NCBI GenBank assembly: GCA_046331385.1
Contig: JAXLQW010000001.1
Location: forward strand, 3,719,037-3,783,036
Direction: 5' to 3'
DNA: 64,000 nucleotides
Source of the DNA: Thermoanaerobaculia bacterium
GTDB lineage: Bacteria; Acidobacteriota; Thermoanaerobaculia; Multivoradales; JAGPDF01
Below are positions 19,951 through 35,812 of this stretch, piece after piece (positions within the stretch are counted from its first letter, which is position 1; every line of letters starts with the position of its first letter). The notes under the pieces were generated by a model, which was not told the origin of the DNA, ran no database searches, and saw nothing but the letters and a program-made list of their open reading frames with translations. Made by a program: the position numbers and the translations under genes.

Positions 19951-20761
19951 ACGGCCCCTTCCAGGCTTCGCCGGAGAGCCGCGGCGCGATCTCGTCGAGC
20001 ACGAAGCTCGCGGCTTGGCCCAGGTCCCATGCGACTCCACGCGCCAGCACCGGGCCGAGATCGGCTTGGAACACGCGATCCTGGAGCTTGCCATGCAGGT
20101 TGGCTTCGAACTCCGCGCGGGAGACGCGGAGCCCGTCCGCCTTCAGGTACTCTCTGAAGCAGGCGACCACGCGGTCGAAGTCGACCGCGGCGTGCGTCGC
20201 CGCCCACCAGAGATCGAAGAGATCCCTTCCCTTCCGGCGCTGGTAGAGCGCGCGGAGCTTGGTTCCGAGAAGCTCGTCAAGGGTGTAGCTCGAAATCGAC
20301 ACCGCTCCGGTGAACCACCGCGAGCGCACCTCGAACGGCCGGTTTTCGATCCCGAGAACGCAGAGGTGTTCGCGCGAGTTGATCTCGAGCTTCAGTCGGA
20401 GCGGTAGAGGCTCGGCATCTTCCGACGCGAATCGATAGACGAGCGTCACGCGGCCCTCGCCGAAGCTCCTCCTGGGTTCGCCCAGCCAGGGGTCGAGGCG
20501 CGACCGCAGCCGGTCGAGTGTGGCTCCGATCGGCTCGGCGCGTGTCTGCACGAGGTCGATGTCCTCGGAGTACCGGGGCGCCGGCGTCAGGTGCAGCTTG
20601 AAGAGCGCGGTCCCGCCGCGGAAGGCGAGGGACCGTGCGAGGTCCGCATCGCCGAAGGTCTCGACCAGGACCCGGCTCAGGACGAGATCCTGCTCGACCT
20701 GGGAGCTCGGCACCCACGGGACGTGCTGCCGCCACTCCGCGATGTAGTCCGCCGGAATCAC
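19949..20761 (-). CDS. abiEii: AbiEii/AbiGii nucleotidyltransferase toxin (DUF1814)
   Basis: 270 aa. DUF1814-like NTase motifs (FRGGTALFKLHL...RYSEDIDLV). 4-nt overlap with the upstream AbiEi gene. Confidence 0.85.
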   Translation of the reverse strand: MIPADYIAEWRQHVPWVPSSQVEQDLVLSRVLVETFGDADLARSLAFRGGTALFKLHLTPAPRYSEDIDLVQTRAEPIGATLDRLRSRLDPWLGEPRRSFGEGRVTLVYRFASEDAEPLPLRLKLEINSREHLCVLGIENRPFEVRSRWFTGAVSISSYTLDELLGTKLRALYQRRKGRDLFDLWWAATHAAVDFDRVVACFREYLKADGLRVSRAEFEANLHGKLQDRVFQADLGPVLARGVAWDLGQAASFVLDEIAPRLSGEAWKGP

Positions 20762-21561
20762 AGGTCGGGCTCCACGTCGGTGTTGATGCGGAGCTTCCAG
20801 CGCTCGTTCCGCGGCGCGTCGCCGCGCTCGCCTCCCGGGATCAACGAGGCGGTCTCGGTCGCACTCTGCGCGACGAACGCGGCCAGCGGCTCGCCACGCG
20901 ACGTCTGCCCGAGGCGCTCCAGGAGATAGCCGAGCCGCTGCGCCCAGGGGATCGGCGAGAGCGGGCCGAGCTCGGCGAGGCGTTTCGCATCGAGCTTTTC
21001 CGCCAGCTCGGCGAGGACGGTGGCGACGTTGTCGAGCCCGCCGCAGCGCTCGGGGTAGCCGACCAGGTCGAAGGCCGTCGCTTCCGGCGAGGAGACCCGG
21101 AGGTAGCCGCGCGGCGTGTTGACCTGCGCCGTCGGCATGGCTTCGGCGTTATGTCGCGCCACGAAATCGACCGCCACGCGGCCACAACGGATCGACGGCC
21201 GGTTCTTCGGCACGACGACCTGGAACTGCTGCGGCTGCTGATGCGCCGCTCCGTGGTAGCGGGCCGCGGTCAGGAGGCCCGCGTAGTGCGCGACCGAGAG
21301 CCGCTCCATCAACTGCGGGACGAACTGCTCGGGCGGCAGGCAACCGAGCGACTGGTACTCGGGCGGAACGAAGAGATGAATGCCTCGGTAGGGGGTGGCG
21401 ATCTCCCCCTTCGCCTTCAGCCGCCGGAGCGCGGCCCGCGCCGCGACGTCCGAGACGCCGAGATCTCGCACGACCTCCGCGGTCGAGAAGAGATACCGCC
21501 CCCGCGCGGCCCAATCCAGGACCAGCTTTCGGGCCGCGGGGCGGCTGGGTTCAGGATTCAC
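20758..21561 (-). CDS. abiEi: AbiEi antitoxin (type IV TA transcriptional regulator)
   Basis: 267 aa. N-terminal wHTH. Gene pairing and order AbiEi then AbiEii. Confidence 0.8.
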   Translation of the reverse strand: MNPEPSRPAARKLVLDWAARGRYLFSTAEVVRDLGVSDVAARAALRRLKAKGEIATPYRGIHLFVPPEYQSLGCLPPEQFVPQLMERLSVAHYAGLLTAARYHGAAHQQPQQFQVVVPKNRPSIRCGRVAVDFVARHNAEAMPTAQVNTPRGYLRVSSPEATAFDLVGYPERCGGLDNVATVLAELAEKLDAKRLAELGPLSPIPWAQRLGYLLERLGQTSRGEPLAAFVAQSATETASLIPGGERGDAPRNERWKLRINTDVEPDL

Positions 21562-21648
21562 GCGACCAAAATAACGCTAAACGTTACTTTTGTCGAGCAC
21601 ATTCTGCGGAGTGGGCCCCTTCCTAGGCGTAGCCCTGGAGTTGGAGCC

Positions 21649-22788
21649 CTACAACTCCCCGCGAAAGGCGCGGTCGAGCACGGCGGGGAGGAGGGCGTCG
21701 AGGGTGGCGGCGGACTCGGACTGGAGATCTTTCGCCGGTGTCAGCTCTGCCACGATCCGGACGGCTTCGAGTTGCAGGTCGAGGCTGGGCATTGGAAGGA
21801 CAATCGAGAGGAACTGCTCGGGTCGTGTGCGCTCCCGGCGTGCGCCGACACCTCGCGTTGCAGCGCCGAGTTTGCGCCAGAACCACTCCGTCCTCACTAG
21901 CGGCGCCAGATATCCAGGGTTTGCTTCTGCCTCGATGCAGCGGAAGGTTCGGTACTCCGGCGAAACAAACCAGCCGGCGAGAGCTGGCGAGCAGACCGCT
22001 ACCGCCCCCTCCCAGGCTTTCACCTGGCTCAAGACCAAAGAACCGTCATAGAGCCGATTGAAATGCTTGTAGGTCGTTCCGCCTCCCTCGACCGACGCTT
22101 TCGGGAACAAGCCGCCGCCGAAGCTCCTCACACCAACTTGAGGATACGAGGCTTGAGTGTCAACGCCGACCGATTCTTCGTCGAGACGCAACAAGTCGCC
22201 GAGCCGTCGGCGTCGTTCGCCCGAGAGCTTGTAGTGAAGACTCACGACAAGTGCTTCCTGTTCAAGCCTCGAGAGCGAGCGGAGGCGCCTTGCCTCAGCC
22301 ACCAACCCCGCCACCTCCTCGATTCGCGCCACCACCCGCCGCTGCTCCGGGAGGGGAGGTAGCGGAATTCTGTAGTCGAGCACCTCGGCGGGGCGAATCG
22401 CTGCGTAGTTCGTCGAACCTTGCGCTTCGACCTGGTCGCGGAAGGCTCGCGTGCGGGAGAAGTAGTCGAGAAACCGCCGATCCAACCTCCTCTCGTCTAC
22501 CTCGAAGAGGAAGTAGTGGCTGCTCACGATCGCGCCCTCGAGCTCCGGCGGCACGAGGCCAAAGCCACCGACTTTCGCGTCGATCTCCGCTACCAAGAAC
22601 TCACCGGCTCGGCAGACCTGCTGCTTCTTCGTTTTGATCATCGCGCCCGGCACGCGGTCTCGAACGACGATGCCTTGGGCGTGGAGCTGTACTCGGGGCC
22701 GCGTGTATTCCTTCAGGTCATCGATTTGAATGAAGTCCCGGCGCAGCTTTAGGACCTCACCGAGGCTGCTAACGGGCCAGCCGGTCAT
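21649..22788 (-). CDS. hsdS: Type I restriction-modification specificity subunit HsdS (two TRDs)
   Basis: 379 aa with duplicated TRD architecture and conserved central/distal repeats (LPPLPEQRRVVARIEEV...). Overlaps the hsdM stop. Confidence 0.85.
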   Translation of the reverse strand: MTGWPVSSLGEVLKLRRDFIQIDDLKEYTRPRVQLHAQGIVVRDRVPGAMIKTKKQQVCRAGEFLVAEIDAKVGGFGLVPPELEGAIVSSHYFLFEVDERRLDRRFLDYFSRTRAFRDQVEAQGSTNYAAIRPAEVLDYRIPLPPLPEQRRVVARIEEVAGLVAEARRLRSLSRLEQEALVVSLHYKLSGERRRRLGDLLRLDEESVGVDTQASYPQVGVRSFGGGLFPKASVEGGGTTYKHFNRLYDGSLVLSQVKAWEGAVAVCSPALAGWFVSPEYRTFRCIEAEANPGYLAPLVRTEWFWRKLGAATRGVGARRERTRPEQFLSIVLPMPSLDLQLEAVRIVAELTPAKDLQSESAATLDALLPAVLDRAFRGEL

Positions 22789-24341
22789 CGGATCGGAGCC
22801 GCGAGCAGTCCCTGGATCCTCTCCACGATCTCGACGATCCTCCGCTCCTTCTCCAAGACGCTCGCCACTAGCACTTCAGGCGGCAGGTGGGTGATGTCCT
22901 CTTTCGCGCGCGGATTCTTGCGGTCGAGGTTGCAGCCGTTCGCCAGGAGCTCGGTGGCTGGCACCTTCCAAGTGCGCTCGTTCTCTTCGCGGTGCGTCCA
23001 CCACGCGAGGCAGGGCTCGAACTCGTCGTACTGGAGCGGCTGCGTCTTCGTGTAGTTCTTGCGCCCCTCGGGGAGGGGGTGCTCGTAGTACCAGACGTCC
23101 TGCGTCGGGCCGGAGCGGTCGAAGAAGAGGAGGTTGGTGGGGATCGACGTGTACGGGGCGAAGACGCCGTTCGGGAGGCGCACGATGGTGTGGAGGTTGA
23201 ACTCTTCCAGCAACTCCTTCTTGATCCGCGCGCAGACGCCGTCGCCGAAGAGCGTGCCGTTGGGCACGACGACCGCGGCACGCGCCGGCGGGAAGCCCGC
23301 GCGCGGCTGCTTGCGCAGCTTGCGCATGATGAGCTGCAGGAAGAGCAGCGCCGTCTCCGCCGTCTGGCGGTCCTCCGGGAAATTCGACTGGATGCCCTTC
23401 TCCTCCTCGCCGCCGAAGGGCGGATTGGTGAGGATGACGTCGACGCGGTCCTTCTCGCCGATCTCGGTGAGCTTGAACCTCAGGGCGTTGCCGGGGTCGA
23501 TCTGCGGCGCGTCCAGCCCGTGGAGGAGGAGGTTCATTTGGCAGAGCAGGTACGGCAGCGGCTTCGGCTCGCAGCCGAAGAGGGACTTCTCCTGCAGCAC
23601 CTTGCGGCCATCCGTCGTGCGCACTTGCGCGAAGAGGTGGTTGTATGACTCGACGAGGAAGCCACCGGTGCCGCTCGCCGGGTCGAGGACGCGCTCGCCG
23701 AGACGGGGATCGGTGACCGCGACCATGAAGCGCACCACGGGTCGCGGCGTATAGAACTCGCCCCCGTCGCCCGCCGCGTCGCGCATCTCGCGCAGCATCG
23801 ACTCGTAGAGCGCGCCCAGCGTGTGCAACTCCGCGCTCGACGTGAAGTGGATCGTCGCCAGCTTGTTGATCACGTCGCGCAGCAGGTAGCCGCTCACCAT
23901 GCGGTTCTGCACGCCCTTGAACACCGTGGCGATGACGTCGCGCCGGTCGTCGCCGTTGGCGCTCGACAGGTTCCGGAGGTAGGCGAACAAGCCGGGGGCG
24001 CGCTTCCCGTCGGCGCGCTTGTACTCGTCCTGGTTGATGAACGCGATCAGGTCGTCGCCGGTGATCCCCTTGGGGTCGGCCGCCCAGTCCCGCCAGCGGT
24101 AGGGCGCCTCGATCGCCGGTCGGAACCTGCTGCCGGCGAGCTCGGCCTCGGTCTCGCGCTGGGCCTCGAGGTCGTCGAGGAACTTGAGGAAGAGGACCCA
24201 GGTGAGCAGCGGCAGGCGGTCGACGTCGCCCGAGAGCCCTTTGTCCTTGCGCATGATGTCGCGCGCCGACTTGATGGTGCTGGCGAGCGATTGGACGGTG
24301 GTGAGCGGAGCGCCGGCTTTCTTGGGAGTTCTAGGCGGCAT
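22785..24341 (-). CDS. hsdM: Type I R-M DNA methyltransferase subunit HsdM (N6-adenine)
   Basis: NPPF catalytic motif (ILTNPPFGG). SAM motif (VLDPASGTGGFL). HsdM N-domain. Confidence 0.9.
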   Translation of the reverse strand: MPPRTPKKAGAPLTTVQSLASTIKSARDIMRKDKGLSGDVDRLPLLTWVLFLKFLDDLEAQRETEAELAGSRFRPAIEAPYRWRDWAADPKGITGDDLIAFINQDEYKRADGKRAPGLFAYLRNLSSANGDDRRDVIATVFKGVQNRMVSGYLLRDVINKLATIHFTSSAELHTLGALYESMLREMRDAAGDGGEFYTPRPVVRFMVAVTDPRLGERVLDPASGTGGFLVESYNHLFAQVRTTDGRKVLQEKSLFGCEPKPLPYLLCQMNLLLHGLDAPQIDPGNALRFKLTEIGEKDRVDVILTNPPFGGEEEKGIQSNFPEDRQTAETALLFLQLIMRKLRKQPRAGFPPARAAVVVPNGTLFGDGVCARIKKELLEEFNLHTIVRLPNGVFAPYTSIPTNLLFFDRSGPTQDVWYYEHPLPEGRKNYTKTQPLQYDEFEPCLAWWTHREENERTWKVPATELLANGCNLDRKNPRAKEDITHLPPEVLVASVLEKERRIVEIVERIQGLLAAPIR

Positions 24342-26694
24342 AGAGGAGGTTCTGGAGCTCGGTCACGGCGGCGCGCAGGAGGTCGGCGCCGCCGAAGAGG
24401 TTGGTGATCTCCTGCACCGTGCCGTGCTGCGACACCGGCGGGACCTTGAGGACGTCGGGCATGAGGAACTGCGCGGCGCCGTGCTCGGCGTACCTTTCCA
24501 GGAGCTCGTCGAGGACCGCGCGCGCCTCGGGGCCGTACCTGGCGAAGAAGTCTCTGCGCTCGGTGCGCAGCCGCTGGGCCCGTTCCCGCCGCGTGCGCAG
24601 CGGCGCGTTCCAGGCCAGATGACAGAGCAAATCGAACGGGTCGGCGTCGGGTTGGCGCGCGGTCTCGGCGAGGGCTTCGAAGCTCACACCCATCGCCTCG
24701 AGGCGCGAGAGGATTTCGGCGCGCTTCTCCGGGTCCGCCCAGCGAGCACGCAGCTCCGGGGCCGACGGAACCAGCGTGCGCACCTTCTCGGCCGCGTACT
24801 CGGTGTAGCGCACCACGCGGAGCTGCCTGCCGTCGGGGTCGAGCTCGTAGACGAGGTGCGCCGCGATCTCCACGCTGCCCTCGTCGAAGTAGTACTTCCT
24901 TCGCGGCGCGTGCTCCGGATCGAGAATGACGCCGTCCTCGCCGGGGTAGGGCGGCGGCATCTCGGCCTCCTCCTCGGCCACCTCGTGCGGATCGGGACCG
25001 GGGACCGCGGCGAGCTCCTCCTCGGTGACGCGCGCCGGGTCGCCGTCGAAGTCCGGATCGGCGAACAGGCGGGTGGCGGAGCCGGTGTAGTCGAGGATGT
25101 TGAACCACAGCTTCCCGTAGTCGTCGCGCACCCGCGTGCCGCGCCCGATGATCTGCTTGAACTCGCTCATCGAGCCGACGACGCGCGCCAGAACGACGTT
25201 GCGGCAGGTCGGTGCGTCGACCCCGGTCGTCAAGAGCTGGGAAGTGGTGAGGATGACCGGCGTCCTGGATTCGACGTCTTGGAAGCGATCGAGATGCCCG
25301 CGGCCGACGTCCCCTTCGTCGGCCGTGACCCGGCAGACGTAGTCGGCATGCTTCCGGACCAGATCGGCGTTGAGGTTGCCGAGCGCCCGGCGCATCTCGT
25401 CGGCGTGCTCCTGGTCGACACAGAAGACGATGGTCTTGGCGAAGCGGTCATCCCGCCGCAGGAACGCCGTCAGGTGGCGGGCGATCGCCTCGGTCCGCGC
25501 GCGGAGCGCCACCAGCCGCTCGAAGTCCTTGGTCTGGTATTCGTCGTCGGGGATCTCGCGGCCGTAGCGGTCGAGCTCGTCCTTGCTGGGGCGCCACCCC
25601 GCGGCGTCCCATTCGGTGATCACCCGGTGAACGCGATAGGGCGCCAGGAAGCCGTCCTCGATGCCCTGTCGCAGGCTGTATTGGTAGATCGGGTTGCCGA
25701 AGTAGAGGTAGGTGTCGCGGCTCTCCTCGCGCAGCGGTGTGGCGGTCAATCCGAGCTGGTAGGCCGGATGGAAGTAGGTGAGGATCTCGCGCCAGCTGGA
25801 GTCGTCGCGAGCGCTGCCCCGATGGCATTCGTCGACGATGACGAGGTCGAAGAAGTCGCGAGCGTACTCGCGATAGAGGCCGGGCCGGCTCTCGTCCTCG
25901 GCCAGCGCCTGGTAGATCGCGAAGTACATCTCGCGGCCCTGATTCGCGACGCCGCCCTCGATCTTGAAGCGCGCGTCGCCGAACGGGGCGAAGATCCCGT
26001 CCTTGGGCTGGTCGACGAGGATGTTGCGATCGGCGAGGTAGAGGATGCGCGGCCTGCGATGGTCGCCGGTGGCGTTCCAGCCGGCGTTCCAGAGCTTCCA
26101 GCAGATTTGAAAAGCGACGGCCGTCTTCCCCGTTCCGGTCGCCATCGTGAGGAGCTGGCGCCGGCGGCCGCCGAGGATCCCCTCGACGGCCCGGTTGACC
26201 GCGATCTCCTGGTAGTACCGCTCGCCCTTGCCGACCGCGTGATTCATCGGCGTCAGCAGACGGGACGCCGCTTCGTCGGAGACGAGTCCGCGGCCGGCGC
26301 GATACCGGTTCCAAAGAGCTGCTGGCGTCGGAAAGTCGGAGACCGTCAGCTCCTGGCCGGTGAAGCGGTCGAACTCTAGGATCTCGTGACCGTTCGTCGC
26401 ATACGCGAAGTGCAGGCCGAGCATCTCCGCGTACTCTCTGGCCTGCTGCATGCCCGCGCCCGGCGTCTGCCACTCGCTCTTCGCCTCGACTACGGCCAGC
26501 GGAAAGTTGCGTTCGTAGCGGAGGATGTAGTCCACGCGCTTCGGCGCCTTGCGCACGAACGACTTTCCCGCCGGGACGATGCGCCCGTCGGTGATCGAAC
26601 GCTGCTCGGCGATCGAGTGCGGATCCTCGTCCCAACCCGCAGCGAGGAGTCGAGGCACGACCAACTTCCGGCACGTATCCGCTTCATTGAGCAT
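24331..26694 (-). CDS. hsdR: Type I restriction endonuclease subunit HsdR
   Basis: N-terminal PD-(D/E)xK nuclease region. SF2 helicase motifs: Walker A TMATGTGKT, DEAH-box DECHRG, LTATP. Confidence 0.9.
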   Translation of the reverse strand: MLNEADTCRKLVVPRLLAAGWDEDPHSIAEQRSITDGRIVPAGKSFVRKAPKRVDYILRYERNFPLAVVEAKSEWQTPGAGMQQAREYAEMLGLHFAYATNGHEILEFDRFTGQELTVSDFPTPAALWNRYRAGRGLVSDEAASRLLTPMNHAVGKGERYYQEIAVNRAVEGILGGRRRQLLTMATGTGKTAVAFQICWKLWNAGWNATGDHRRPRILYLADRNILVDQPKDGIFAPFGDARFKIEGGVANQGREMYFAIYQALAEDESRPGLYREYARDFFDLVIVDECHRGSARDDSSWREILTYFHPAYQLGLTATPLREESRDTYLYFGNPIYQYSLRQGIEDGFLAPYRVHRVITEWDAAGWRPSKDELDRYGREIPDDEYQTKDFERLVALRARTEAIARHLTAFLRRDDRFAKTIVFCVDQEHADEMRRALGNLNADLVRKHADYVCRVTADEGDVGRGHLDRFQDVESRTPVILTTSQLLTTGVDAPTCRNVVLARVVGSMSEFKQIIGRGTRVRDDYGKLWFNILDYTGSATRLFADPDFDGDPARVTEEELAAVPGPDPHEVAEEEAEMPPPYPGEDGVILDPEHAPRRKYYFDEGSVEIAAHLVYELDPDGRQLRVVRYTEYAAEKVRTLVPSAPELRARWADPEKRAEILSRLEAMGVSFEALAETARQPDADPFDLLCHLAWNAPLRTRRERAQRLRTERRDFFARYGPEARAVLDELLERYAEHGAAQFLMPDVLKVPPVSQHGTVQEITNLFGGADLLRAAVTELQNLLYAA

Positions 26695-26734
26695 GAGGCT
26701 CAGCGGATTCTAGCCCTCGCGTTCGAAGGGAGAC

Positions 26735-26852
26735 ATGGTGGAGCAGAAGGGATTCGCGCCGGGCGGTTGGGTGGGGGGCCCGAATCCCCGATGCGAGATA
26801 TTGCAGGAACTGAATGGTGGAGCAGAAGGGATTCGAACCCTCGACCCCCACG
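26735..26852. repeat. Two tRNA-3'-end-derived fragments (minus-strand orientation); the second (26827-26852) is a near-perfect T-arm plus acceptor 3' strand plus CCA
   Basis: Reverse complement of 26827-26863 is ...GAGGG-TTCGAAT-CCCTT-CTGCTCC-A-CCA, a canonical T stem-loop with G53-C61. No complementary 5' acceptor strand downstream, so a fragment not a gene. Confidence 0.6.
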
Positions 26853-26876
26853 TTGCGGGCGCCGGAGCGATCGCGA

Positions 26877-27332
26877 CTACTTGCGATCGCGCACTTCGCG
26901 CAGGACGCGCGCGTCGTCCTGGTGGCGCGGGTCGTCGATCCCACTCTTGATCGCGATCAAGCTGTCGATGTCGATCCAGTTGGCGTGCGCCGCTCCATAG
27001 CGCGACTCGATCCTGCGCCCCCAGGCGTCCGTGAAGCTGATCTCGCTCGATCCCCCGGCTTCCCGGAGCAGATCGACGCGGTTGGGCTCGACGCCGAGCT
27101 GCAGGATCTCGCCGGGCTTCTCGGCGTCCAGGAGATAGGGGCTGCCGAAGTCAGCCAACGCGCGGTTGGCGCGCTCGACATTCCCGCGCTCGGGGTCGAG
27201 CCAGAGATCGATGTCCCTGGTGTAGCGAGGCCTGGCGTGGAAGATGAACGCCAAACCGCCGATGATCAGATAGCGGACGCCGTGGCGGGCAAAGAGCTCG
27301 AGGATGTCCTCGAAATCGCGAACGGCGTCCAA
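26877..27332 (-). CDS. Putative nucleotidyltransferase-fold protein (possible toxin-like component)
   Basis: 151 aa. HGVRYLIIGGLAFIFHARPRYTRDIDLWLDP resembles minimal NTase-fold proteins. Confidence 0.5.
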   Translation of the reverse strand: MDAVRDFEDILELFARHGVRYLIIGGLAFIFHARPRYTRDIDLWLDPERGNVERANRALADFGSPYLLDAEKPGEILQLGVEPNRVDLLREAGGSSEISFTDAWGRRIESRYGAAHANWIDIDSLIAIKSGIDDPRHQDDARVLREVRDRK

Positions 27333-27336
27333 ATCA

Positions 27337-27555
27337 TCAACTCTCTACGGGATGCGCGGTCGCGCGGGCGGCCTCGACGAGCTCCACGTCGCGCCGGAGG
27401 GCGACGAGCACCGAGAGCCGCTCCTCGGGCGTCCGTCGCTGCCAGAACTCGAGATCCCAGGCCTCGGCCTCGGCGAAGCTCGCGGCGCGATTCGCGACCA
27501 GGCGCTCGCGGCGCTCGCGGCTGCGCTCCTGGAGCGTCGTCTCGGAGTCCGACAT
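27337..27555 (-). CDS. Small 72-aa protein (possible antitoxin-like partner)
   Basis: Genuine C-terminal part of track ORF 27337..28191. Start MSDSETTLQERSRERRERL; the rest of that ORF is tandem-repeat translation. Confidence 0.4.
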   Translation of the reverse strand: MSDSETTLQERSRERRERLVANRAASFAEAEAWDLEFWQRRTPEERLSVLVALRRDVELVEAARATAHPVES

Positions 27556-27666
27556 GACCGTGATTCTACCGCTCATCGAACATGTCAACGCGGCGCTTGC
27601 GGCCGGCGGCCAAGCGCCCGACGATCCGCGTTCCGGGGATCGATCCGTAGAGACGCAGGAGGACCT

Positions 27667-28070
27667 GGTGGAGCAGAAGGGATTCGTGCCGGGCGGCCGG
27701 GTGGGGGGCCCGAATCCCTGACCTTCTGGTCGACCGAAGGGAGACATGGTGGAGCCGAAGGGATTCGCGCCGGGCGGCCGGGTGGGGGGCCCGAATCCCT
27801 GAATTTCTGGTCGACCGAAGGGAGACATGGTGGAGCCGAAGGGATTCGCGCCGGGCGGTCGGGTGGGGGGCCCGAATCCCTGAATTTCTGGTCGACCGGA
27901 GGGAGACATGGTGGAGCCGAAGGGATTCGCGCCGGGCGGTCGGGTGGGGGGCCCGAATCCCTGAATTTCTGGTCGACCGGAGGGAGACATGGTGGACCAA
28001 ATCACTCTGAGTTCGAACACCCCAGGAAGTTCGAACACCCTGATTTTCTGGCTTCGGGAGGTCGCGGCAA
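27667..28070. repeat. Tandem array of an 81-nt repeat (4 near-identical units plus a 5th divergent unit merging into element C)
   Basis: Units start at 27667, 27747, 27828, 27909, 27990. Unit is TGGTGGAGCCGAAGGGATTCGCGCCGGGCGG.CGGGTGGGGGGCCCGAATCCCTGAATTTCTGGTCGACCG.AGGGAGACA. Each begins with a degenerate tRNA-3'-end-like sequence. Confidence 0.85.
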
Positions 28071-28200
28071 TGAGGCAGGCGGCATGAGCTCCATGCCGAT
28101 GAAAGGCCTGTCTCTGGGTTCCGTACGCCGTCTCCGGAGGAGCCCGGCAGGGCGCCTCGGGACCGGCGTCCCTCTCTGGTATCCGCTGCAAGGCAGCGGA
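27990..28200. repeat. Element C: homolog of elements A and B, immediately upstream of repA-like gene
   Basis: TGGTGGACCAAATCACTCTGAGTTCGAACACC...CTGATTTTCTGGCTTCGGGAGGTCGCGGCAATGAGGC aligns with the copies at 15637 and 19795. Confidence 0.5.
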
Positions 28201-28213
28201 GCGGAGGGGCAGT

Positions 28214-29170
28214 ATGGCTTGGAAGTCCGCGACCCCGCAGCTTTCGTTGGTCCTCCCTGGCGCCCCGGCGTCACAGTTTCATTCTACAGATGTTGAGATC
28301 GGATCCCGCAAGTCCAGGCGCTCGGGCAGCCTGATCCGGCAGGCGCTCTACCTCGACCAGGAAGACGCCTACGCCGCCGGCGAGGTCGGTTTCCTGGCCC
28401 GGGCGCTCGTGCAGGCGACCCTCCCGCACAGCGACCCGAAGGCCAACGAGTTCGTCCGGCGGAACGGACACTTCACCCTGTCCATCCTTGCCCCGAAGGA
28501 CGTCGGGCTACCCTATGGCCGGTATCCGCGTCTGGTGCTCGCCTACCTCACGACCGAGGCGGTGCGCCGCAAGAACCCCGACATCGAGCTCGGCGGCCAC
28601 TTCTCGCACTTCTGCGCCGCCCTCGGGATCCCGCCGACCACGGGACCGCGTGGGTCCTTGCCGCAGCTCCGCGACCAGCTCCAGCGCCTCTTCGCCTCGA
28701 CCTTCCAGTGCATCTTCCACGACGAGAGCCAGGGGAGACACGCTGGCGATGGCTTCCTGATCGCCGAGAAGCGGGAGCTTTGGTGGGACCCGCGGCCGAG
28801 GAAGGGCGAGGCTGCGTGGGGGTCCCACGTCGTTCTCTCGGACCGGTTCTACCGGGAGGCGACCGAAGCGCCGGTCCCGCTCGACCTGAGGGTCCTTCGC
28901 GCCCTCCGGTCGCCGTTCGAGATCGACATCTATGTCTGGCTGACCTGGCGCTTCTTCCGCCTGCGGAAGCCGGTCACCATCCCGTGGGCTTCGCTGGCGC
29001 TCCAGTTCGGGTGCGGCTACGCCAACCCCCGACACTTCAAGAAGCGGTTCCTCGGCTACCTCCGGAGCGTCATCGACTACTACCCGGACGTGAGGCTCGA
29101 GAGCTCGGCCGCCGGCTTGCTGCTCAAGCCCTCGCCAACGCATATCGAGCAGCGGCCTGCGAAGCGTTGA
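28214..29170 (+). CDS. repA: Replication initiator protein RepA-like (RPA family, PF10134-like) of integrative/conjugative elements
   Basis: 318 aa. Resembles ICE/plasmid RepA proteins (LPYGRYPRLVLAYLTTEAVRRKNPDIELGGHFSHFCAALGIPPTTGPRGSLPQLRDQLQRLF). First gene after the repeat array. Confidence 0.7.
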   Translation: MAWKSATPQLSLVLPGAPASQFHSTDVEIGSRKSRRSGSLIRQALYLDQEDAYAAGEVGFLARALVQATLPHSDPKANEFVRRNGHFTLSILAPKDVGLPYGRYPRLVLAYLTTEAVRRKNPDIELGGHFSHFCAALGIPPTTGPRGSLPQLRDQLQRLFASTFQCIFHDESQGRHAGDGFLIAEKRELWWDPRPRKGEAAWGSHVVLSDRFYREATEAPVPLDLRVLRALRSPFEIDIYVWLTWRFFRLRKPVTIPWASLALQFGCGYANPRHFKKRFLGYLRSVIDYYPDVRLESSAAGLLLKPSPTHIEQRPAKR

Positions 29171-29223: not shown

Positions 29224-29823
29224 ATGGGCGCCGTAGCTCCGAAGGCACCGAACCAGCCGGACTGGGATGGCCTCTTCGCCGTCGCGCAGGCCCAGAGCGG
29301 CTACTTCACGACGGCTCAAGCCGCCCAGTCGGGCTATTCGCGTCCGCTCCTTCACAAGTACCTGGCGACGGGGAAGGTGGTGCGCGTGCGACGTGGCGTC
29401 TACCGCGTCGTGCACTTCCCGGCCAGCGAGCACGAGGACCTCATCGTCCTCTGGCTCTGGGCCGAGCAAGCCGGCGTGTTCTCCCATGAGACGGCCCTGG
29501 CGCTCCACGATCTCTCCGACGCGCTTCCCGGAAAGGTACACCTGACGGTGCCCCCGGGTTGGCGCCGGCGCCGTCTCCGAGTCCCAGCCGGGCTCGTGCT
29601 GCACTTCGCCGACGTCGGTGACGTCGACCGCGCCAGCTATTCAGCGGTGCCCGTCACGGCACCGCTCCGGACCCTGCGAGACTGCATCGAGGCCAACGTC
29701 GCCGCCGACCTTGTCCGCCAAGGGATCCTCCAGGCGCGGCGGCGCGGGATCGTTTCCGCGAAGGATGAAGCTCGACTTCTTTCCGAGCTTGGCAGCCTGG
29801 GCCGGACGGTAGCTGCGCGATGA
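29224..29823 (+). CDS. abiEi: AbiEi-family antitoxin (second copy)
   Basis: 199 aa. AbiEi_4-like N-terminal domain. 4-nt overlap with the downstream AbiEii. Confidence 0.7.
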   Translation: MGAVAPKAPNQPDWDGLFAVAQAQSGYFTTAQAAQSGYSRPLLHKYLATGKVVRVRRGVYRVVHFPASEHEDLIVLWLWAEQAGVFSHETALALHDLSDALPGKVHLTVPPGWRRRRLRVPAGLVLHFADVGDVDRASYSAVPVTAPLRTLRDCIEANVAADLVRQGILQARRRGIVSAKDEARLLSELGSLGRTVAAR

Positions 29824-30725
29824 CCGCTCGCCAGTACGCAACGCCTCTGGCCTTCAAGCAGGCGCTCGAACAACGGCTCAAGTCCTCGTCGGCCACCGGC
29901 GTCGACTTCGGACGGCGCCGCCAGTTGCTCGTCTTCGATCGCTTCCTCGCTCGCCTGGCCCAGGTCGCTGGCGACGCCGTCACTCTCAAGGGTGGGCTCG
30001 TTCTCGAACTTCGCCTCGCCCGGGCACGGACCACCAAGGACATCGACCTTCGCATGATGGGGTCGTCAGACGACGTGCTCGAGCGGCTCCAGGAAGCAGG
30101 CCGCCTCGACCTCGGCGACCACATGCTCTTCGAGGTCCAGCCGGATGCGGACCACCCCGAGATCCAGAACGAGGGGATGCGCTACGACGGATTCCGCTAT
30201 CGCACCGAGTGCCGGCTCGCGGGCATGATCTACAGCCGACCGTTCGGCGTCGACGTAGCCTTCGGTGACCCGCTCGTCGGCGAGCCCGACATCGTCACTG
30301 GCGACGACATCCTCGGATTCGCCGGGATCGCTCCTCCGTCGCTGCGCCTGTATCCGGTTGTCTCCCACATCGCCGAGAAGCTTCACGCGTTCACGATGCC
30401 CCGGCCGAGGCCGAACTCGCGGGTTCGAGATCTCCCCGACCTGGCACTGCTGGCGACCACCGGCACGATCGACGGGGCTGAGCTCCGTCGGGCCATCGAG
30501 AAGACATTCGAGTTTCGCGGCACGCATCCGATTCCGCCCGCGGTCCCGCAGCCTCCCGAGTTCTGGGAGGCGCCGTACACAACCATGGCCGAGAACGACG
30601 ACCTAGCCTGGAGGGCACTACCGGAAGTTACGGCAGCGGTGGAGACGTTCCTCAATCCCGTGCTGGCTTCCTCCGACTCTGGGACCTGGGAGCCGAAAAG
30701 CTGGCTCTGGAAGGGCCGTGCCTAA
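29820..30725 (+). CDS. abiEii: AbiEii/DUF1814 nucleotidyltransferase toxin (second copy)
   Basis: 301 aa. DUF1814 motifs (TLKGGLVLELRL...TKDIDLRM). Confidence 0.8.
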   Translation: MTARQYATPLAFKQALEQRLKSSSATGVDFGRRRQLLVFDRFLARLAQVAGDAVTLKGGLVLELRLARARTTKDIDLRMMGSSDDVLERLQEAGRLDLGDHMLFEVQPDADHPEIQNEGMRYDGFRYRTECRLAGMIYSRPFGVDVAFGDPLVGEPDIVTGDDILGFAGIAPPSLRLYPVVSHIAEKLHAFTMPRPRPNSRVRDLPDLALLATTGTIDGAELRRAIEKTFEFRGTHPIPPAVPQPPEFWEAPYTTMAENDDLAWRALPEVTAAVETFLNPVLASSDSGTWEPKSWLWKGRA

Positions 30726-30756: not shown

Positions 30757-32256
30757 CTACTCCGCGCTTGTTGGCTGTGGCGCGAAGATGAGGATCTGCT
30801 CGGCCTGACCCGGAGCGAGATTCGGCAGTCGCGGGCGGGTGAGCCGCTGACCGGCTGCCACTCGTGCCCAGTAGCCGCGCGGCGGAACGGGAATCTGAAG
30901 GCGCCGGCAGGCCTTTGCCAGCCCCCGGCCTGACAAGCCCCATTCTCTTGCCAGCGTCTCAACCGGCTCGGTCCAGATGCGCTCGAAGAGCGCCGGCCGG
31001 TCGAGGCGGATCTCGCGGCCATCCCGGCGCCAGCCCCCGATGCGCTCCGTTCGATGCAAGATGGGCTTAGCCCGCTCCGCTTTCGGCTTCGGCCGCTCGA
31101 TCCCGAGCTTGTTGAGTGTTTCTCGGGCTCTGGAGGGTCGAACTCGGTCGAACGCACTTCGCGAGTGCGGAGTTGCTGGAATCAGGCCGACGCGCTTCAT
31201 GCGCTCTCGCATGCTCGGCGTGCGGGCGAGCTCAGTCAGCACTTCCCGTGAGCAGAAGTCCTGGGTCGCGAGGAGCTTCATCACGTCGGCGAAAACGTAG
31301 TCGCTGCACCGGAGCAGATCCCGGCGCGCGCTCGCGATCTCCTCTTTCGGGCTGGCCTGCCACCTCACGCCGGCATTGAACAGGGCGCGGAGCGCCTCGA
31401 CCGGCCGGTGTTCGCGGAAGGGCCAGTTGGCCCGCGCTAGCTGGAGAGCGACGATCCTTCCGGACTCCTTGGGAAGAGCTGAGCGCACCAGGAGGGCGAT
31501 CACTTTCTCGTTGGCCGCCGAGTAGAAGAGCTCCTCGAAGTCGTCTCTTTCGAGGTCGGGTCCCAGGCGCTCGAGGATCGCCGCATGTCCGCTGCTGCAC
31601 GCTTCCTGGATGGCGCTTCGCCTGTCGTCCTCGTCCGCCTCGTCGACTCCGTAGCCCATGTAGCTCAGGCTGGGAACTCGAGCGTGCGGGTTGGCGCCTG
31701 CCCAGAGGCAAAGCATGACGCCCTTCTCGTTTCCCTCTCCCGCATGGCGCGCGATCGCCATGTCGAGCGCGGTTTGGAGTCTCGGGTCGTCGATCCGGTG
31801 CCGCCGTGCGTAGCCGAACAGCGGCTTGTTGCTCGTGTGGTACCCGAGCGCATAGGCGACCGCGTGGCCCTCAGTGAGGTCGATGCCGAGGCTGCGGAAG
31901 CGCTCGAACAACAGCGAGTCGTAGGTCTCGAAGAGGATGTCCAGGTTCACCTCCCGAGGATCCGCCCCCCACTCCAGGAGGAGATCTAGAAGGTCGCGAC
32001 GGCGCAGCCGAAGCACCGTGTCCAGGGGACTCTGCGGCTCGAGGGTAAGGTCGTATCCGTTCGCAACGAGGAGAAAGATCAGGGCTTGGTCCTGGCGCTC
32101 CAAGGCGATCTCGAGGGCGGTCCGTTCACGGCGGCGCTCGCCGGGAGAACCAGGCGCGAGCTGAAGAGATCTGCCGGCCTGGATCCAGCGCTCAACGTCG
32201 TAGAGACGCCCCGTGCGGCAGAGCTGGTGAAGCTCCGTCAGCTCCGCTCCACTCAT
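30757..32256 (-). CDS. Ankyrin-repeat-like protein with uncharacterised C-terminal domain
   Basis: Start chosen at internal MSGAELTELHQL. The track ORF extends to 32814 through a low-complexity N-extension. ANK-like repeats (TALEIALERQDQALIFLLVANGYDL, TALDMAIARHAGEGNEKGVMLCLWAGANP). C-terminal ...LAREWGLSGRGLAKACRRLQIPVPPRGYWAR. Confidence 0.5.
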   Translation of the reverse strand: MSGAELTELHQLCRTGRLYDVERWIQAGRSLQLAPGSPGERRRERTALEIALERQDQALIFLLVANGYDLTLEPQSPLDTVLRLRRRDLLDLLLEWGADPREVNLDILFETYDSLLFERFRSLGIDLTEGHAVAYALGYHTSNKPLFGYARRHRIDDPRLQTALDMAIARHAGEGNEKGVMLCLWAGANPHARVPSLSYMGYGVDEADEDDRRSAIQEACSSGHAAILERLGPDLERDDFEELFYSAANEKVIALLVRSALPKESGRIVALQLARANWPFREHRPVEALRALFNAGVRWQASPKEEIASARRDLLRCSDYVFADVMKLLATQDFCSREVLTELARTPSMRERMKRVGLIPATPHSRSAFDRVRPSRARETLNKLGIERPKPKAERAKPILHRTERIGGWRRDGREIRLDRPALFERIWTEPVETLAREWGLSGRGLAKACRRLQIPVPPRGYWARVAAGQRLTRPRLPNLAPGQAEQILIFAPQPTSAE

Positions 32257-32372
32257 CGCGAGGCGCGCGGCAGGGCGGGGTGCCCGAGGAGAGGGGTTCG
32301 CTCTCGGATCGACGAACGCAGTGCAGGTGCTCGTCGTCAAGGTCGCCACCGGACCCGCGGCCGACTCGAGGC

Positions 32373-32921
32373 TCACAGGTCTTTCGAGGCCTCGGATTCG
32401 CCCGAAGGCTGTGGTGCTTCGGAAAGCAGATGGCGCGCTTCCCGGGATTCGACTACTTCTAGGTGCAATCGCCAGCGACCCAGGGGGTCGCCGCCCACCA
32501 CTAGAATCACAGGCTGGCGGCAGTGGTAGTGCGGTGAGTCGGCGATCTCCTCCATCTGACGAACGTCCCGGATGCTCGGCGACGGATCCGCATGGGGATG
32601 GAAATGCCACTCGCCGAGATAGTGGCCTGATCGACGAGCCCAGAGCTGGGCCAGCCACGCCTGAAGCCCCCTGACCCCTCGCACGAAGTGCGTCCGACCG
32701 CTCTTGCCGTCGGCCGGGGCCGTCGAGGCGCCCGTGATACGGGCAGTGCGCAGATCCGGTGAGTACTTTCCAACCAAGATGCCACCAGTTTCGTGGTCGC
32801 CAGCACTCGCGCATGCGTCGAGAATGAGCGCGAGAGCAGCTGGCTCTAGGTGAACACCAAATCTGCCGTCCTGCGACCTGCGATCAATGGGGACGATCGG
32901 GGTTCGCATCGACCTCGGCAT
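32373..32921 (-). CDS. cap3: CBASS Cap3-like JAB/JAMM metalloisopeptidase
   Basis: JAMM motif HFHPHADPSPSIRD (HxHx7SxxD) plus an upstream Glu. Overlaps the Cap2 3' end. Confidence 0.8.
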   Translation of the reverse strand: MPRSMRTPIVPIDRRSQDGRFGVHLEPAALALILDACASAGDHETGGILVGKYSPDLRTARITGASTAPADGKSGRTHFVRGVRGLQAWLAQLWARRSGHYLGEWHFHPHADPSPSIRDVRQMEEIADSPHYHCRQPVILVVGGDPLGRWRLHLEVVESREARHLLSEAPQPSGESEASKDL

Positions 32922-34680
32922 CTTGCGCGTCGCCAGAAAGTTGAATCACCTTGAGCTCGGATCCCACGCTGGGTCCCTCGCACCAGCGCTCGATCGCCCC
33001 CACGGCGCGACACGCGGTCGCCCAGACGCGGTCCGTGCGTGCTGGGAACACGGGATGCCAGCAACCAATCCCTTCCCAGGGGAAGTTGGAGTCTGGGTAT
33101 TCAACTTCATCCTGCTTCAGGTGCGAAGAGAGTGCAGCCCAATAGTCATCAGCAGGGAACCGTCGTCCGGTGCTTGTGAACAGGTAGGCGCGAATGGCGC
33201 CGCGGCCCAGCGAGACCGACGCAAATACCACGGGCGCTTCGAGTTCGCGCACCGAGAGAAGATGGAGGACTTCGTCTTCTCCGGTGCAGTCGACCACGAG
33301 ACCCAGATCGGCAGGAAACGCTGTTGGATCCGTGGTTTGCAGGGTCGTAGGTAGCGCGGTCACATTGGCGTGAGGCGAAATCCGATTCAGCCGCGAGGCC
33401 AGCGCACTAGCCTTCGGCTTGTCCACTTCATCCAACGTGAGAGTGTGGCGTGCGAGATTGCCGGCTTCGAGGCTGTCCCCATCCAACACGCTGACGTCGA
33501 AGACGCCTCCTCTCACCAATAGCTCTGCGATTGCGGAGCCCAACGCTCCAGCACCTATCAGCAGAACCCGTCGGCGGCGAAGCTGAGGCCCAAGCTGCCC
33601 TCTTGTCGCTAGCTGGTCAACTGCCCAGTTCGCAGCTGAGAGCCACGCGATTTTCCGACCGTCGGCCAGCACGACTTGTCGGTCGTGCTTCCAGAAGGAT
33701 GTCTCTTTGTTCCGGAAGCCGTTGACGCTGTCGGTTGACAGGCCATCCAACAGCGCCGGCTGCCAGTGGAGTCGCACCCCTTCCCCGCCGACCACTTTCG
33801 GGACCGGAAATCCGACGAGCACGATTGCTGCCTTCTTGCCGCGCATTGCTCGAATCGCCGTACGGAGCAACTCGTCGACGTGGGCGCCGGCCTTGCTGGC
33901 TACTTCGCGCAATTCCCCCCATTTCATGGGTGCGCCGTAGGGACCGAGAATGGGGATCTCGGGAAGCCGAATCCAAGCCGCCATTCGAGTGACGCCCCTT
34001 GCCGCGAGGTACTTGCCCCATGGAGGGGCGACAAGCTCCTTCTGCGCCAACGTTAGGAATCGCTTCGCGACATAGGGGAAGGGCTCACCCAGAGCAGTGA
34101 GCTCGGCGATCCCGCACTGGTCCGGGATCTGAGTCCAGGATGAGTAGGTGGTCTCGTCCTCGGCAAAGGCGACGGTGCCGCCTGACGTCCGGAACTGCGG
34201 AAGCTCGAACGCGTCTCCGTCTCGGACGAGCGTGCCGGCTGCCGCATTCTCCGCCCAGCCCTTTAGGCGGGCTGCGTACCAGACCAACCGCGAAGGTTCG
34301 CCCTTGGGGTCGGGGTCTCCACCCGCCCTACCAAAGACAAACGACGGCGACTTGACGCAAACGTCACCGTCACGCCAGGGAACCTTCCCATCCCCCGCAG
34401 CATTGTGGTCTTGGTGCGGATAGGTCTCGACGATGCCGCCTTCTGCGGCTGGGTAGATTTCGATCTCGCCCCACGGATAGGCGGAAGACGTGACGAGGTA
34501 CCACCTGCTTTCGACTGGGAAGCCACCTCCGGAGTCCCGCGCGAGCGTGATGTTCACGGGAATTGCCCACTTTGAGCCAGAAGCGTCAGACAGCGTCTCA
34601 CCCGAGATCCGAATGCCACCGATCTGATCGAGCTCTCGGCGCGCGACCCGAAGCGCCTCCGGCATCGAAAGCGGAGGCAC
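32884..34680 (-). CDS. cap2: CBASS Cap2-like E2/E1 fusion (ubiquitin-conjugation-like)
   Basis: 598 aa. N-terminal E2-like region with HxN...C (YPHQDHNAAGDGKVPWRDGDVCVK). C-terminal ThiF/E1 Rossmann (VLLIGAGALGSAIAELLVRGGV...DGDSLEAGNLARH). Confidence 0.8.
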   Translation of the reverse strand: MPPLSMPEALRVARRELDQIGGIRISGETLSDASGSKWAIPVNITLARDSGGGFPVESRWYLVTSSAYPWGEIEIYPAAEGGIVETYPHQDHNAAGDGKVPWRDGDVCVKSPSFVFGRAGGDPDPKGEPSRLVWYAARLKGWAENAAAGTLVRDGDAFELPQFRTSGGTVAFAEDETTYSSWTQIPDQCGIAELTALGEPFPYVAKRFLTLAQKELVAPPWGKYLAARGVTRMAAWIRLPEIPILGPYGAPMKWGELREVASKAGAHVDELLRTAIRAMRGKKAAIVLVGFPVPKVVGGEGVRLHWQPALLDGLSTDSVNGFRNKETSFWKHDRQVVLADGRKIAWLSAANWAVDQLATRGQLGPQLRRRRVLLIGAGALGSAIAELLVRGGVFDVSVLDGDSLEAGNLARHTLTLDEVDKPKASALASRLNRISPHANVTALPTTLQTTDPTAFPADLGLVVDCTGEDEVLHLLSVRELEAPVVFASVSLGRGAIRAYLFTSTGRRFPADDYWAALSSHLKQDEVEYPDSNFPWEGIGCWHPVFPARTDRVWATACRAVGAIERWCEGPSVGSELKVIQLSGDAQDAEVDANPDRPH

Positions 34681-35798
34681 TAGGCGAATCGGCCTTCCCG
34701 CGGTCGTGCTGGGGCGCTTGGCTGTGTGAAGCCTCCCAAGAACGCGCTGGTCTTGCTCGGTGGCTCAGGGAACTCTGGTCCCAGGAGCTGCCGCCACAGT
34801 TTGGAGCTCTCGTCGATGGTCGCCGCTTCGAGCGCTCGCTTCGCGAGGTCGCTAGCCACGACGAGCTTCTCGTGAAATCCGGCGAAGTCGTCACCACTCA
34901 CGCGCCTCATGACGTCAACGAGGGGATCGCGAACGCCTCGCGCAGGTAGGAAGGGAGTCTCTCTCCTCCTGGCGTAGGGAGCGTACCGCCGTTCCATCTC
35001 CTCGAGTGTCCCTGAGAGTCCGGCCGCAACGCTGTCGATACCGTCGGCGCAGCACTCTCCGACGAGGTGTTCGAGCGTGTACCCCTTCGGGTACTTCGGC
35101 AGGGGTGCAATCTCGCGCCGCCACCACTTCGTCGCGCGTGCAACGTGAATGAAGTGACCACCAGTCGCCTCGTTCTTGCGAGCCGTCCAGCCGATCAAGA
35201 AGAGTGGATGGGTTTTTTCCCAAACCTGGAGAGTCCGGTCCGGGATCCACAAGGGCTCGGACTTGTCGAAATCGCGATCCGCCCGTGCCGACTCGAGCAC
35301 AGCTGCACTCAAGGTTCGGAACTGAGCGCCACCGGCCTGAGGTGAGCCCGGCTGAGCGTCCCAGTCGCGCAGGGCTTTGGTCTGCAGGGCCTCGCGCAGC
35401 TCTCGGCTGTCCGGTTCGGAAGTGGGTACGAGGTCGATCGTGACCTCTGGGTCAACGGTAATGCACCACGAGCGATCCTGGGCTTCGTAGCGCCCGGCGT
35501 AGTGGCGCTCCAGGAACGGCTGGAACAGATGGTGGGCGTAGGCGGCGGTGTAGGTGCTTCGCGGAAGGTTGGTCACGGCCACGACATCGACGTCGCATTG
35601 ATGCTGAGTGCTCCCGCGATTGGCGGTGAACCGCCGCTGACTCCCTTGAATGAAGGTAGCGAGCAGGACAGGCCGAAGGTGTGGATCCTCCATGAGTCGT
35701 TCGCGGAGCCGCTTGTGCTCGGCGATCATCACTTCCTTCTGGCGAGGAGTTGGCGCGGTGTTCTGCAGGAAGTCCTCGAAGTAAGTAGGAAGTTCCAT
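34680..35798 (-). CDS. cdnX: cGAS/DncV-like nucleotidyltransferase (CD-NTase, SMODS domain)
   Basis: 372 aa. GS...[DE]h[DE]h active site (GSQRRFTANRGSTQHQCDVDVVAV). 1-nt overlap with cap2. Confidence 0.8.
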   Translation of the reverse strand: MELPTYFEDFLQNTAPTPRQKEVMIAEHKRLRERLMEDPHLRPVLLATFIQGSQRRFTANRGSTQHQCDVDVVAVTNLPRSTYTAAYAHHLFQPFLERHYAGRYEAQDRSWCITVDPEVTIDLVPTSEPDSRELREALQTKALRDWDAQPGSPQAGGAQFRTLSAAVLESARADRDFDKSEPLWIPDRTLQVWEKTHPLFLIGWTARKNEATGGHFIHVARATKWWRREIAPLPKYPKGYTLEHLVGECCADGIDSVAAGLSGTLEEMERRYAPYARRRETPFLPARGVRDPLVDVMRRVSGDDFAGFHEKLVVASDLAKRALEAATIDESSKLWRQLLGPEFPEPPSKTSAFLGGFTQPSAPARPREGRFA

Positions 35799-35812
35799 AG
35801 GTTGTATCTCCG

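Follow-up and report, generated by a model that had tools for sequence, protein, structure and literature searches.

What is a tandem array of 81-nt repeats, each carrying the last nucleotides of a tRNA, doing at the edge of a mobile element? The question is raised by a 64,000-nucleotide stretch of DNA from a Thermoanaerobaculia bacterium (Acidobacteriota; GenBank assembly GCA_046331385.1, contig JAXLQW010000001.1, positions 3,719,037 to 3,783,036), which is called the window here and is numbered from its first letter. An earlier note, made from the letters of the window alone, had described a tRNA 3′-end fragment and a repeat array derived from it, and had offered attachment (att) scars, a recombination hotspot, or a family of small RNAs as explanations. 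Our analysis indicates that the array is probably a noncoding stack of att-type units derived from the 3′ end of tRNA-Ala(CGC), situated at an integration hotspot and at the boundary of a mobile element. The element in question, an integrative conjugative element (ICE), begins where the array ends.

The array was delimited with Tandem Repeats Finder (TRF), a repeat search, and an in-register print of the copies. It occupies 27662–27996 on the minus strand and consists of 4.1 copies of an 81-nt period with 97% matches and zero indels, which confirms the proposal of at least four head-to-tail copies with more than 90% identity. The 21-mer TGGTGGAGCMGAAGGGATTCG occurs six times on one strand of the window, compared to a chance expectation of 0.02. 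Four of the six sites are in the array, one is in a tRNA-like fragment (26815–26835), and one is in a solitary unit (26736–26756). All six core copies have the same orientation and fall inside 1.3 kb; four are arranged head to tail, and copies of the unit are confined to 26.7–28.0 kb of the window. Read in the tRNA sense (minus strand), the unit is composed of a 21-nt core that runs from midway along the T-loop to CCA, an S1 spacer of ~27 nt, and a GC-rich hairpin, H. The core starts inside the T-loop at TT|CGAAT. The array cores are identical to positions 56–76 of tRNA-Ala(CGC) at 20–21 of 21 nucleotides, so the derivation of the units from a tRNA 3′ end holds, and the tRNA-end segments are not degenerate as had been thought. 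Three cores on the minus strand are G variants that match the tRNA-Ala 3′ end at 20/21 positions (27909–27929, CGAATCCCTTCGGCTCCACCA; 27828–27848; and 27747–27767), and the final core of the array (27666–27686, minus strand) matches at 21/21. The spacer has the form TGTCTCC.TTC..GTCGACC and is homologous across all sources of the unit. The hairpin opens with GGGATTCGG, and its outer arm pairs with CGAATCCC of the following core. Just 60 nt of spacer and hairpin separate the array cores; this DNA is noncoding and contains no element-borne genes. Open reading frames (ORFs) that span the repeats have a third-position GC content (GC3) of 0.64–0.76 compared to 0.88–0.90 in the neighboring genes. 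This GC3 is not coding-like, which speaks against protein-coding repeats and bears out the suspicion that the repetitive ORFs are artifacts.

The tRNA-like fragment is a piece of tRNA-Ala(CGC) that extends from the anticodon to CCA (positions 34–76) at 26815–26857 on the minus strand, and it is identical at 43 of 43 positions to the intact genes of related genomes. The fragment was real as first described, but the interval given for it, 26827–26863, leaves out the CCA end at 26815–26817; of the two identities considered, alanine tRNA stands as tRNA-Ala(CGC) and tmRNA does not. ARAGORN finds zero tRNA or tmRNA genes in the 64-kb window, so the fragment has no matching 5′ half there, as had been stated. 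The direct repeats are thus tRNA 3′ segments that run from the anticodon loop or the T-loop to the 3′ end (43/43 and 20–21/21, respectively), which is the form of att direct repeats. No intact target tRNA is present in the window; an intact tRNA-Ala adjoins homologous units at three loci from other genomes (L001, L002, and L014).

Directly to the left of the fragment is a solitary fifth unit at 26736–26814 (minus strand) that was absent from the earlier note. It has a differing spacer, S3, a hairpin, and a 21/21 core at 26736–26756; its predicted fold has z = −2.4, and its identity to the array units is 88–96% (repeat family D2). Past this last core are the initial 12 nt of an S1-type spacer (TGTCTCCCTTCG; 26724–26735, minus strand), and beyond them is unrelated sequence toward hsdR.

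The array does not lie immediately to the right of the fragment as the first description had it. A two-gene module (26877–27555) and ~100 nt of unique sequence (27556–27665, minus strand) intervene. Gene 1 of this cassette is a small ORF of 72 amino acids (27337–27555, minus strand) with a coding-like GC3 of 0.90 and no family match. Gene 2 is a 151-amino acid ORF (26877–27332, minus strand; GC3 0.88) with weak, sub-threshold nucleotidyltransferase-like Pfam matches (DUF6036, NTP_transf_5, and Aminoglyc_resit). The pair, on the minus strand at 26877–27555, may be an uncharacterized toxin–antitoxin (TA)-like module. The cassette is bracketed by two perfect cores of the “T” variant, the tRNA type. 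The right-hand bracket is the final array core (27666–27686), and the left-hand bracket is formed by the last 21 nt of the tRNA fragment (26815–26835), so that the cassette carries 22 extra tRNA nucleotides (positions 34–55) on one side. No integrase or transfer genes are found between the bracketing cores (26857–27666). This is the appearance expected of a small element that has integrated at a core. The unique sequence at 27556–27665 is not significantly similar to the junction regions of related elements; its homology to a ~130-nt region upstream of their RepA blocks was tested, found non-significant, and dropped.

The other boundary of the array is the end of the ICE, whose genes were annotated with Pfam and PADLOC and which occupies 27989–64000 on the plus strand, where it runs off the window. 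Its first gene is repA (28214–29170, plus strand), which encodes a plasmid-type replication initiator (PF04796, E = 2e-32), and the array ends 218 nt upstream of it. The RepA is 48% identical to a Polaromonas plasmid RepA and has close homologues in many Thermoanaerobaculia metagenome-assembled genomes (MAGs). The sequence between the array and the gene (27989–28213, plus strand) is a conserved RepA-upstream block that constitutes the ICE end. BLAST comparisons with five related loci place the onset of homology at 27985–27990, which is the right edge of the array. The repA-upstream blocks of the relatives all start with ATGGTGGACC... or (A)ATGGTGGACCAAATCACTCTGAGTTCGAACACCCC... and are preceded by unrelated sequence. 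Reverse-complementing the motif TGGTGGA gives TCCACCA, the seven terminal bases of the tRNA; it follows that, in the tRNA sense, ...GATTTGG-TCCACCA is the end of the ICE, with S1 directly after it. This junction heptamer (27990–27996, minus strand) is common to the RepA-block end of the ICE and the first, truncated array core. The first 81 nt of the RepA block keep the register of the array and can be read as a diverged fifth unit. Their in-register alignment with the unit has z = 4.7 against shuffles, with 0 of 2000 shuffles as good, and the block and the unit have in common ATGGTGGA at their beginning and CCCTGAWTTTCTGG..GGAGG at their close. Searches for the far end of the ICE detected no att features within 10 kb of the ParB homologues examined.

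Element-borne genes thus lie between repeats in the ICE and in the two-gene cassette, and not in the array itself. Two more RepA-block starts are present to the left of the array. One (19801–19909, plus strand) is 84% identical, has no repA, and belongs to an older accreted module with AbiE and a type I restriction-modification (R-M) system; the block is followed by an AbiE pair, as it is in the distant relative L009. The other (15633–15764, plus strand) is more diverged, at 76% identity, and keeps 12 nt (TCTGCTCCACCA) of the tRNA-Ala end. Of the three co-oriented copies, the last alone retains repA. Three block starts in the same orientation (15633, 19801, and 27989) indicate serial accretion of at least three successive RepA-type elements, and relatives also carry two or three tandem RepA modules. 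The ICE end, the small cassette, and the three RepA-block ends are all located at core or tRNA-end boundaries. These data support the earlier idea that the locus is a recombination hotspot.

Homologous units were found in other genomes. A pattern scan of representative genomes identified L001, from the Acidobacteriota MAG AMX-MBFR-36, in which a tandem array with a period of 87 nt (4.0 copies, 99% identity) begins directly at the end of an intact tRNA-Ala(CGC) gene. The contig ends inside this array, so the copy number is a lower bound of at least 4. AMX-MBFR-36 was the sole representative genome with the pattern, and every match in it is at its tRNA-Ala locus. In L002, identified by a metagenome scan, 1.9 copies of an 88-nt unit lie between an intact tRNA-Ala(CGC) and ordinary genes. 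Further tRNA-Ala(CGC) loci (L011–L014) were sampled via the conserved upstream YihY/BrkB gene. In L014, the tRNA is followed by a single unit whose second core has decayed, and in L013 it has no unit. Units from four sources can be aligned over their entire length. The unit is thus not peculiar to the window genome. A partial check for dispersal of the kind seen with repetitive extragenic palindromic elements found no copy elsewhere in the window and, in AMX-MBFR-36, none away from the tRNA-Ala locus. Viral contigs gave 0 matches when scanned for the two-core pattern, for the RepA-block end, and for the tRNA end.

The unit also recurs at an element end. L009 belongs to a distant lineage whose RepA blocks end ...CTACCAG, not ...TCCACCAT, and it has a complete unit directly after one RepA block (13141–13240, minus strand). 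This unit has a spacer, a hairpin very similar to that of L001, and a core ending in GCGCTACCA. The 3′ part of the core (GTACGCGCTACCA) fits the block end of its own lineage, CTACCAG, and not tRNA-Ala; there is no tRNA within 21 kb of the unit. This core ending suggests either a different target gene or coevolution of the core with the element end. A search of ~300 kb of fetched loci with a unit profile detected no further full unit. The remaining matches are a hairpin-plus-core segment in L009, fragments of core and spacer start that follow tRNA ends, and palindromic hairpins on the opposite strand. The occurrence of units next to intact tRNA-Ala genes and at a RepA-block end marks the unit as a recurrent junction module with a copy number of 0 to at least 4.

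At L011 and L012, the other loci sampled via YihY/BrkB, tRNA-Ala(CGC) is directly followed on its 3′ side by a gene for a large serine recombinase, which is CcrB/XisF-like by NCBIfam in L011. The L011 ORF (9358–10967, minus strand) runs on into the 3′ portion of the tRNA-Ala(CGC) gene, which is intact, so the recombinase reading frame appears to cross the attachment site. The RepA-block motif GGGGTGTTCGAA sits 60 nt past the CCA in L011. An S1-like flank and this 12-nt motif are the only features common to the L011 element and the window; the two have no DNA in common, and the L011 serine-recombinase element was dropped as a member of the family of the window ICE.

The cores and their flanks have diverged to different extents. 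For cores that have never belonged to a tRNA, identity between genomes is 95–100%; the same comparisons give 19–79% for the S1 spacer and 44–85% for the hairpin. The terminal copies alone have decayed, with 57–81% core identity in the second L002 unit and in L014. High identity of the internal cores next to flanks of 19–77% identity suggests that the cores are active recombination sites and not dead scars. The description of the array as att scars was therefore right in recognizing an att-type tRNA remnant, and too passive in calling the copies scars. The core pattern fits repeated re-copying by recombination or conversion, or selection; passive decay does not fit.

The inner palindromes of the hairpin differ by source with compensatory changes (L001, ATCCGCCGGCC/GGCCGGCGGAT; L002, ATTCAGCGGCC/GGCCGCTGAAT; L014, CGACGGCC/GGCCGTCG). 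In an alignment of eight sequences, 83% of the cells are paired compared to 28–51% in slid controls, and 3 pairs have changed on both sides. RNA folding shows the L001 and L002 units to be clearly stable (z = −3.9 and −3.6). In the window array units, the inner palindrome is largely lost, and folding is no better than that of shuffled sequences (z = −0.5 in the tRNA sense and +0.46 in the antisense). Structured RNA was rejected as an explanation for the window array on this basis.

These observations can be joined in a mechanism in which the cores are, or recently were, crossover sites of site-specific recombinases. The first core–S1–hairpin–core arrangement would have arisen by integration of an element whose interior was then lost, leaving nothing but attL and attR as a minimal element. 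The array would then have been expanded and homogenized by unequal exchange from core to core, whether site-specific or homologous. New elements could use the cores as additional attB-like sites and leave the tRNA gene itself untouched. Should the cores be active sites, the array would account for the stacking, at one Thermoanaerobaculia tRNA gene, of several defense-laden elements, which here carry type I R-M, two AbiE systems, cyclic oligonucleotide-based antiphage signaling system (CBASS) genes, and TA modules. Such arrays would also offer a simple signature by which accretion hotspots and the boundaries of elements could be recognized in MAGs. In practice, arrays of this kind break short-read assemblies, as in L001, and their spurious repetitive ORFs should stay unannotated.

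Several points weigh against an att-type stack with active cores. There is no recombinase or integrase gene in the visible 36 kb of the ICE (27989–64000). The case for core activity comes solely from boundaries and conservation, and high core identity could also result from recent duplication or from gene conversion without selection. The sample is small: four independent sources have units next to tRNA-Ala, and one more, L009, has a unit at a RepA-block end. The unit may belong to the chromosomal flank of the tRNA, as the element-free look of L002 and L014 would suggest, or to the tRNA-proximal arm of elements, as L009 and the window would suggest. Finally, the copy number in the window rests on a metagenome-derived assembly.

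A stronger version of the proposal would hold that the units are not a by-product but are maintained as multi-copy landing pads, a selected “attB multiplier” that drives defense-island accretion. We put this forward tentatively and regard it as possible, not probable. A core and its ~27-nt flank together make 48 bp, roughly the length of an attB used by serine recombinases, and elements inserting at tRNA-Ala might carry or regenerate such a spare site. Recombinases that destroy attB upon integration could then stack more elements, and repeated crossovers would keep the cores identical to the tRNA end.

Other explanations were weighed as well. The repeats could be a neutral minisatellite in which the native 3′ flank of tRNA-Ala and an old partial duplication of the tRNA end were expanded by slippage or unequal homologous exchange. 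The cores would then have no present role, the hairpin would be terminator-like, and the ICE would adjoin the array only because the tRNA end is its target. The units of L002 and L014, which follow an intact tRNA-Ala with no element genes in view, are as expected on this account, and so are the variable copy number (0 to at least 4), the decay of the terminal cores, the preservation of the hairpin by compensatory changes in the fashion of a terminator, and a within-array identity of 93–99% that fits recent slippage. However, three different insertions in the window have a start or end that coincides exactly with the boundary of a core or a tRNA end, and the ICE end keeps the register of the array. 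In L009, whose RepA blocks carry a different end motif, a unit again follows such a block, and the core of this unit fits that motif. Internal cores remain 95–100% identical across genomes with flanks that differ by 25–80%, and the hairpins have no U-tract in the tRNA sense. We consider a neutral origin unlikely on balance. A still simpler account, that the repeats were collapsed or expanded during assembly of a MAG, draws on the L001 contig that ends in its homologous array and on the tendency of such repeats to break short-read assemblies. The window copies have position-specific differences in an ordered pattern with unique sequence on either side, and the same architecture is present in independent assemblies. 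A ParB 100% identical to that of the window is encoded on a 4.52-Mb contig of a Thermoanaerobaculia MAG, probably the source, and a contig of this length suggests a long-read or high-quality assembly. An assembly artifact is extremely unlikely.

Two functional roles were also considered. One is that the 81-nt repeats bind the adjacent RepA as iterons and form the origin or a copy-control region of the excised ICE. Direct repeats near a plasmid-type repA are what the array has in common with plasmid iterons: it ends close upstream of a PF04796 gene, the RepA belongs to a genuine plasmid initiator family, and the RepA block resembles a diverged unit. Typical iterons are ~17–22 bp, and the 81-nt tRNA-derived unit far exceeds this length. 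Moreover, the array is in none of ~12 related RepA modules (L003–L010; 79–92% DNA identity over repA and its leader, plus more distant ones), and homology to these modules stops exactly at the array edge, which makes an iteron function very unlikely. The short repeats that are conserved with repA are instead two copies of AGTTCGAACACCC within the block, and homologous units adjoin tRNA-Ala genes at loci where no repA is in view. Similar DNA was found on no plasmid, and the related Polaromonas plasmid has no informative iteron pattern. The other role, related to the small-RNA family proposed previously, is that of a functional RNA. The transcribed array could provide mimics or decoys of the tRNA 3′ end, a type III antitoxin-like RNA, or, from the repA strand, an antisense RNA to the 3′ 21 nt of tRNA-Ala. 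The repeats are upstream of, and on the same strand as, the small ORF and nucleotidyltransferase-like pair, every unit ends ...ACCA, and the hairpin is conserved with some covariation. Against this, a tRNA, tmRNA, permuted tmRNA, or known RNA family was rejected because ARAGORN gave no match and Rfam gave 0 matches at gathering thresholds and only chance-level ones at E ≤ 10 over 26600–28300. The array units fold like shuffled sequences in both orientations, no promoter-like site was found, and there is no acceptor-strand partner, so no minihelix is possible. Searches with the 72- and 151-amino acid cassette proteins gave no PADLOC or NCBIfam match and no toxin or defense family. The two downstream ORFs, specifically, have no ToxN/CptN/TenpN-type match of the kind expected for a ToxI-like type III system, and the units of L001, L002, L014, and L009 are unlinked to the cassette. 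An RNA function for the array is very unlikely.

The att-type stack favored here has counterparts among known systems. Classical tRNA-gene attR fragments have anticodon-loop and T-loop sublocations, and there is normally one fragment per island. The 43-nt fragment (positions 34–76) and the 21-nt cores match both of these canonical classes of tRNA segment, but the six copies here, all in one orientation, are packed into 1.3 kb with four adjoining head to tail, which departs from the usual pattern. The locus also differs from known tRNA-end att repeats in that the ICE end is unit-like and in register with the array.

The closest documented case is that of the Dehalococcoides ssrA genomic islands. 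These islands have 20-bp direct repeats of ssrA with kilobase islands between them (McMurdie et al. 2011, PMC3146451). Many elements are arranged in tandem downstream of the gene, some without integration genes, and a CcrB-like large serine recombinase is located by attL (PMC3146451). A conserved integration module that includes the DsiB/DsiA serine recombinases is found at attL (PMC3146451). The window resembles these islands in a core that begins in the T-loop and in its tandem stacking, with three RepA-block ends and the cassette, and a CcrB/XisF-like recombinase at tRNA-Ala was seen in L011 only. It differs in that four repeats are 60 nt apart with no cargo, the target is tRNA-Ala(CGC) and not ssrA, the elements are conjugative and carry RepA, and no DsiB/DsiA-type serine recombinase integration module is present in the window. 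The model for cis-mobilizable elements (CIMEs) and accretion consists of integration, decay to an element with attL and attR only, and a new integration into one of the att sites (Pavlovic 2004, Bellanger 2011, reviewed in PMC5704250). The cassette has this structure: attL and attR are kept, the DNA between them has no integration or transfer genes, and an ICE adjoins it in one att site. In contrast to CIMEs, which are decayed elements of kilobase size, the array has 60 nt between cores, is tandemly amplified, and has cores that are apparently homogenized and not decaying. tRNA-gene hotspots and tandem island accretion are already well known; short, cargo-free, amplified att units with tRNA-identical cores seem undescribed. 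A targeted full-text literature search, which was limited and is not proof of absence, found nothing comparable to short tandem att arrays, and a search on Thermoanaerobaculia integrative elements found nothing specific.

The repA leader has features of its own. The two exact AGTTCGAACACCC repeats are at 28010–28022 and 28028–28040 with an 18-nt spacing, and they are kept in relatives (L003, 9794–9824); they are candidates for the true binding sites of RepA or of a recombinase. GTTCGAAC is palindromic and T-loop-like. A conserved GC-rich hairpin at 28126–28168 may be a repA leader structure. It gave a spurious Rfam match to mir-351 with 27 bits compared to a gathering score of 70.

Related loci have junction features of other kinds. 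Two more tRNA T-arm/acceptor fragments are located between the stacked RepA modules of L003 (14213–14249 and 15278–15304, minus strand), and likewise in L004–L006. One is 30 nt and covers tRNA positions 47–76 (a TTCCGCTCCACCA variant), and the other has decayed; more than one class of crossover point thus appears to have been used at such a tRNA. In L003a/b, L007a/b, and L008, a common ~130-nt region with a GAGATTCGAACAC motif is found upstream of the RepA block, whichever TA module follows (HigBA or MazE-PIN); this region is absent from the window.

The remaining genes of the window include an ORF at 15636–16559, after the first RepA-block copy, with no Pfam match, and a 905-amino acid ORF at 12804–15521 that has a coding-like GC3 and no Pfam match. 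The 15.6–37 kb interval is a stack of defense modules on accreted elements. To the left of the tRNA fragment, at 19949–26694, are one AbiEi/AbiEii pair and the hsdS, hsdM, and hsdR genes of a type I R-M system; to the right of the array, at 29224–30725, is a separate AbiEi/AbiEii pair. The ICE genes are arranged in the order RepA, AbiEi/AbiEii, an ankyrin protein, and a type II CBASS-like operon (JAB, E1-E2, cyclase, and SAVED-TIR effector), and then a LexA-like protein, ArdC, SSB, relaxase, type IV coupling protein, TrbB/E/L/I, ParA/ParB, and efflux cargo. The 685-amino acid ORF at 30757–32814 has weak ankyrin matches only and an atypical composition. The CBASS-like operon is complete in the ICE (32373–37111, minus strand) and has a lower GC content of 0.63–0.65. 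Its minus-strand genes encode a SAVED-TIR effector (35813–37111), an oligonucleotide cyclase (34680–35798), an E1-E2/Cap2-like protein (32884–34680), and a JAB/Cap3-like protein (32373–32921), and the operon is flanked by a gene for a LexA/S24-like repressor (37115–37759).

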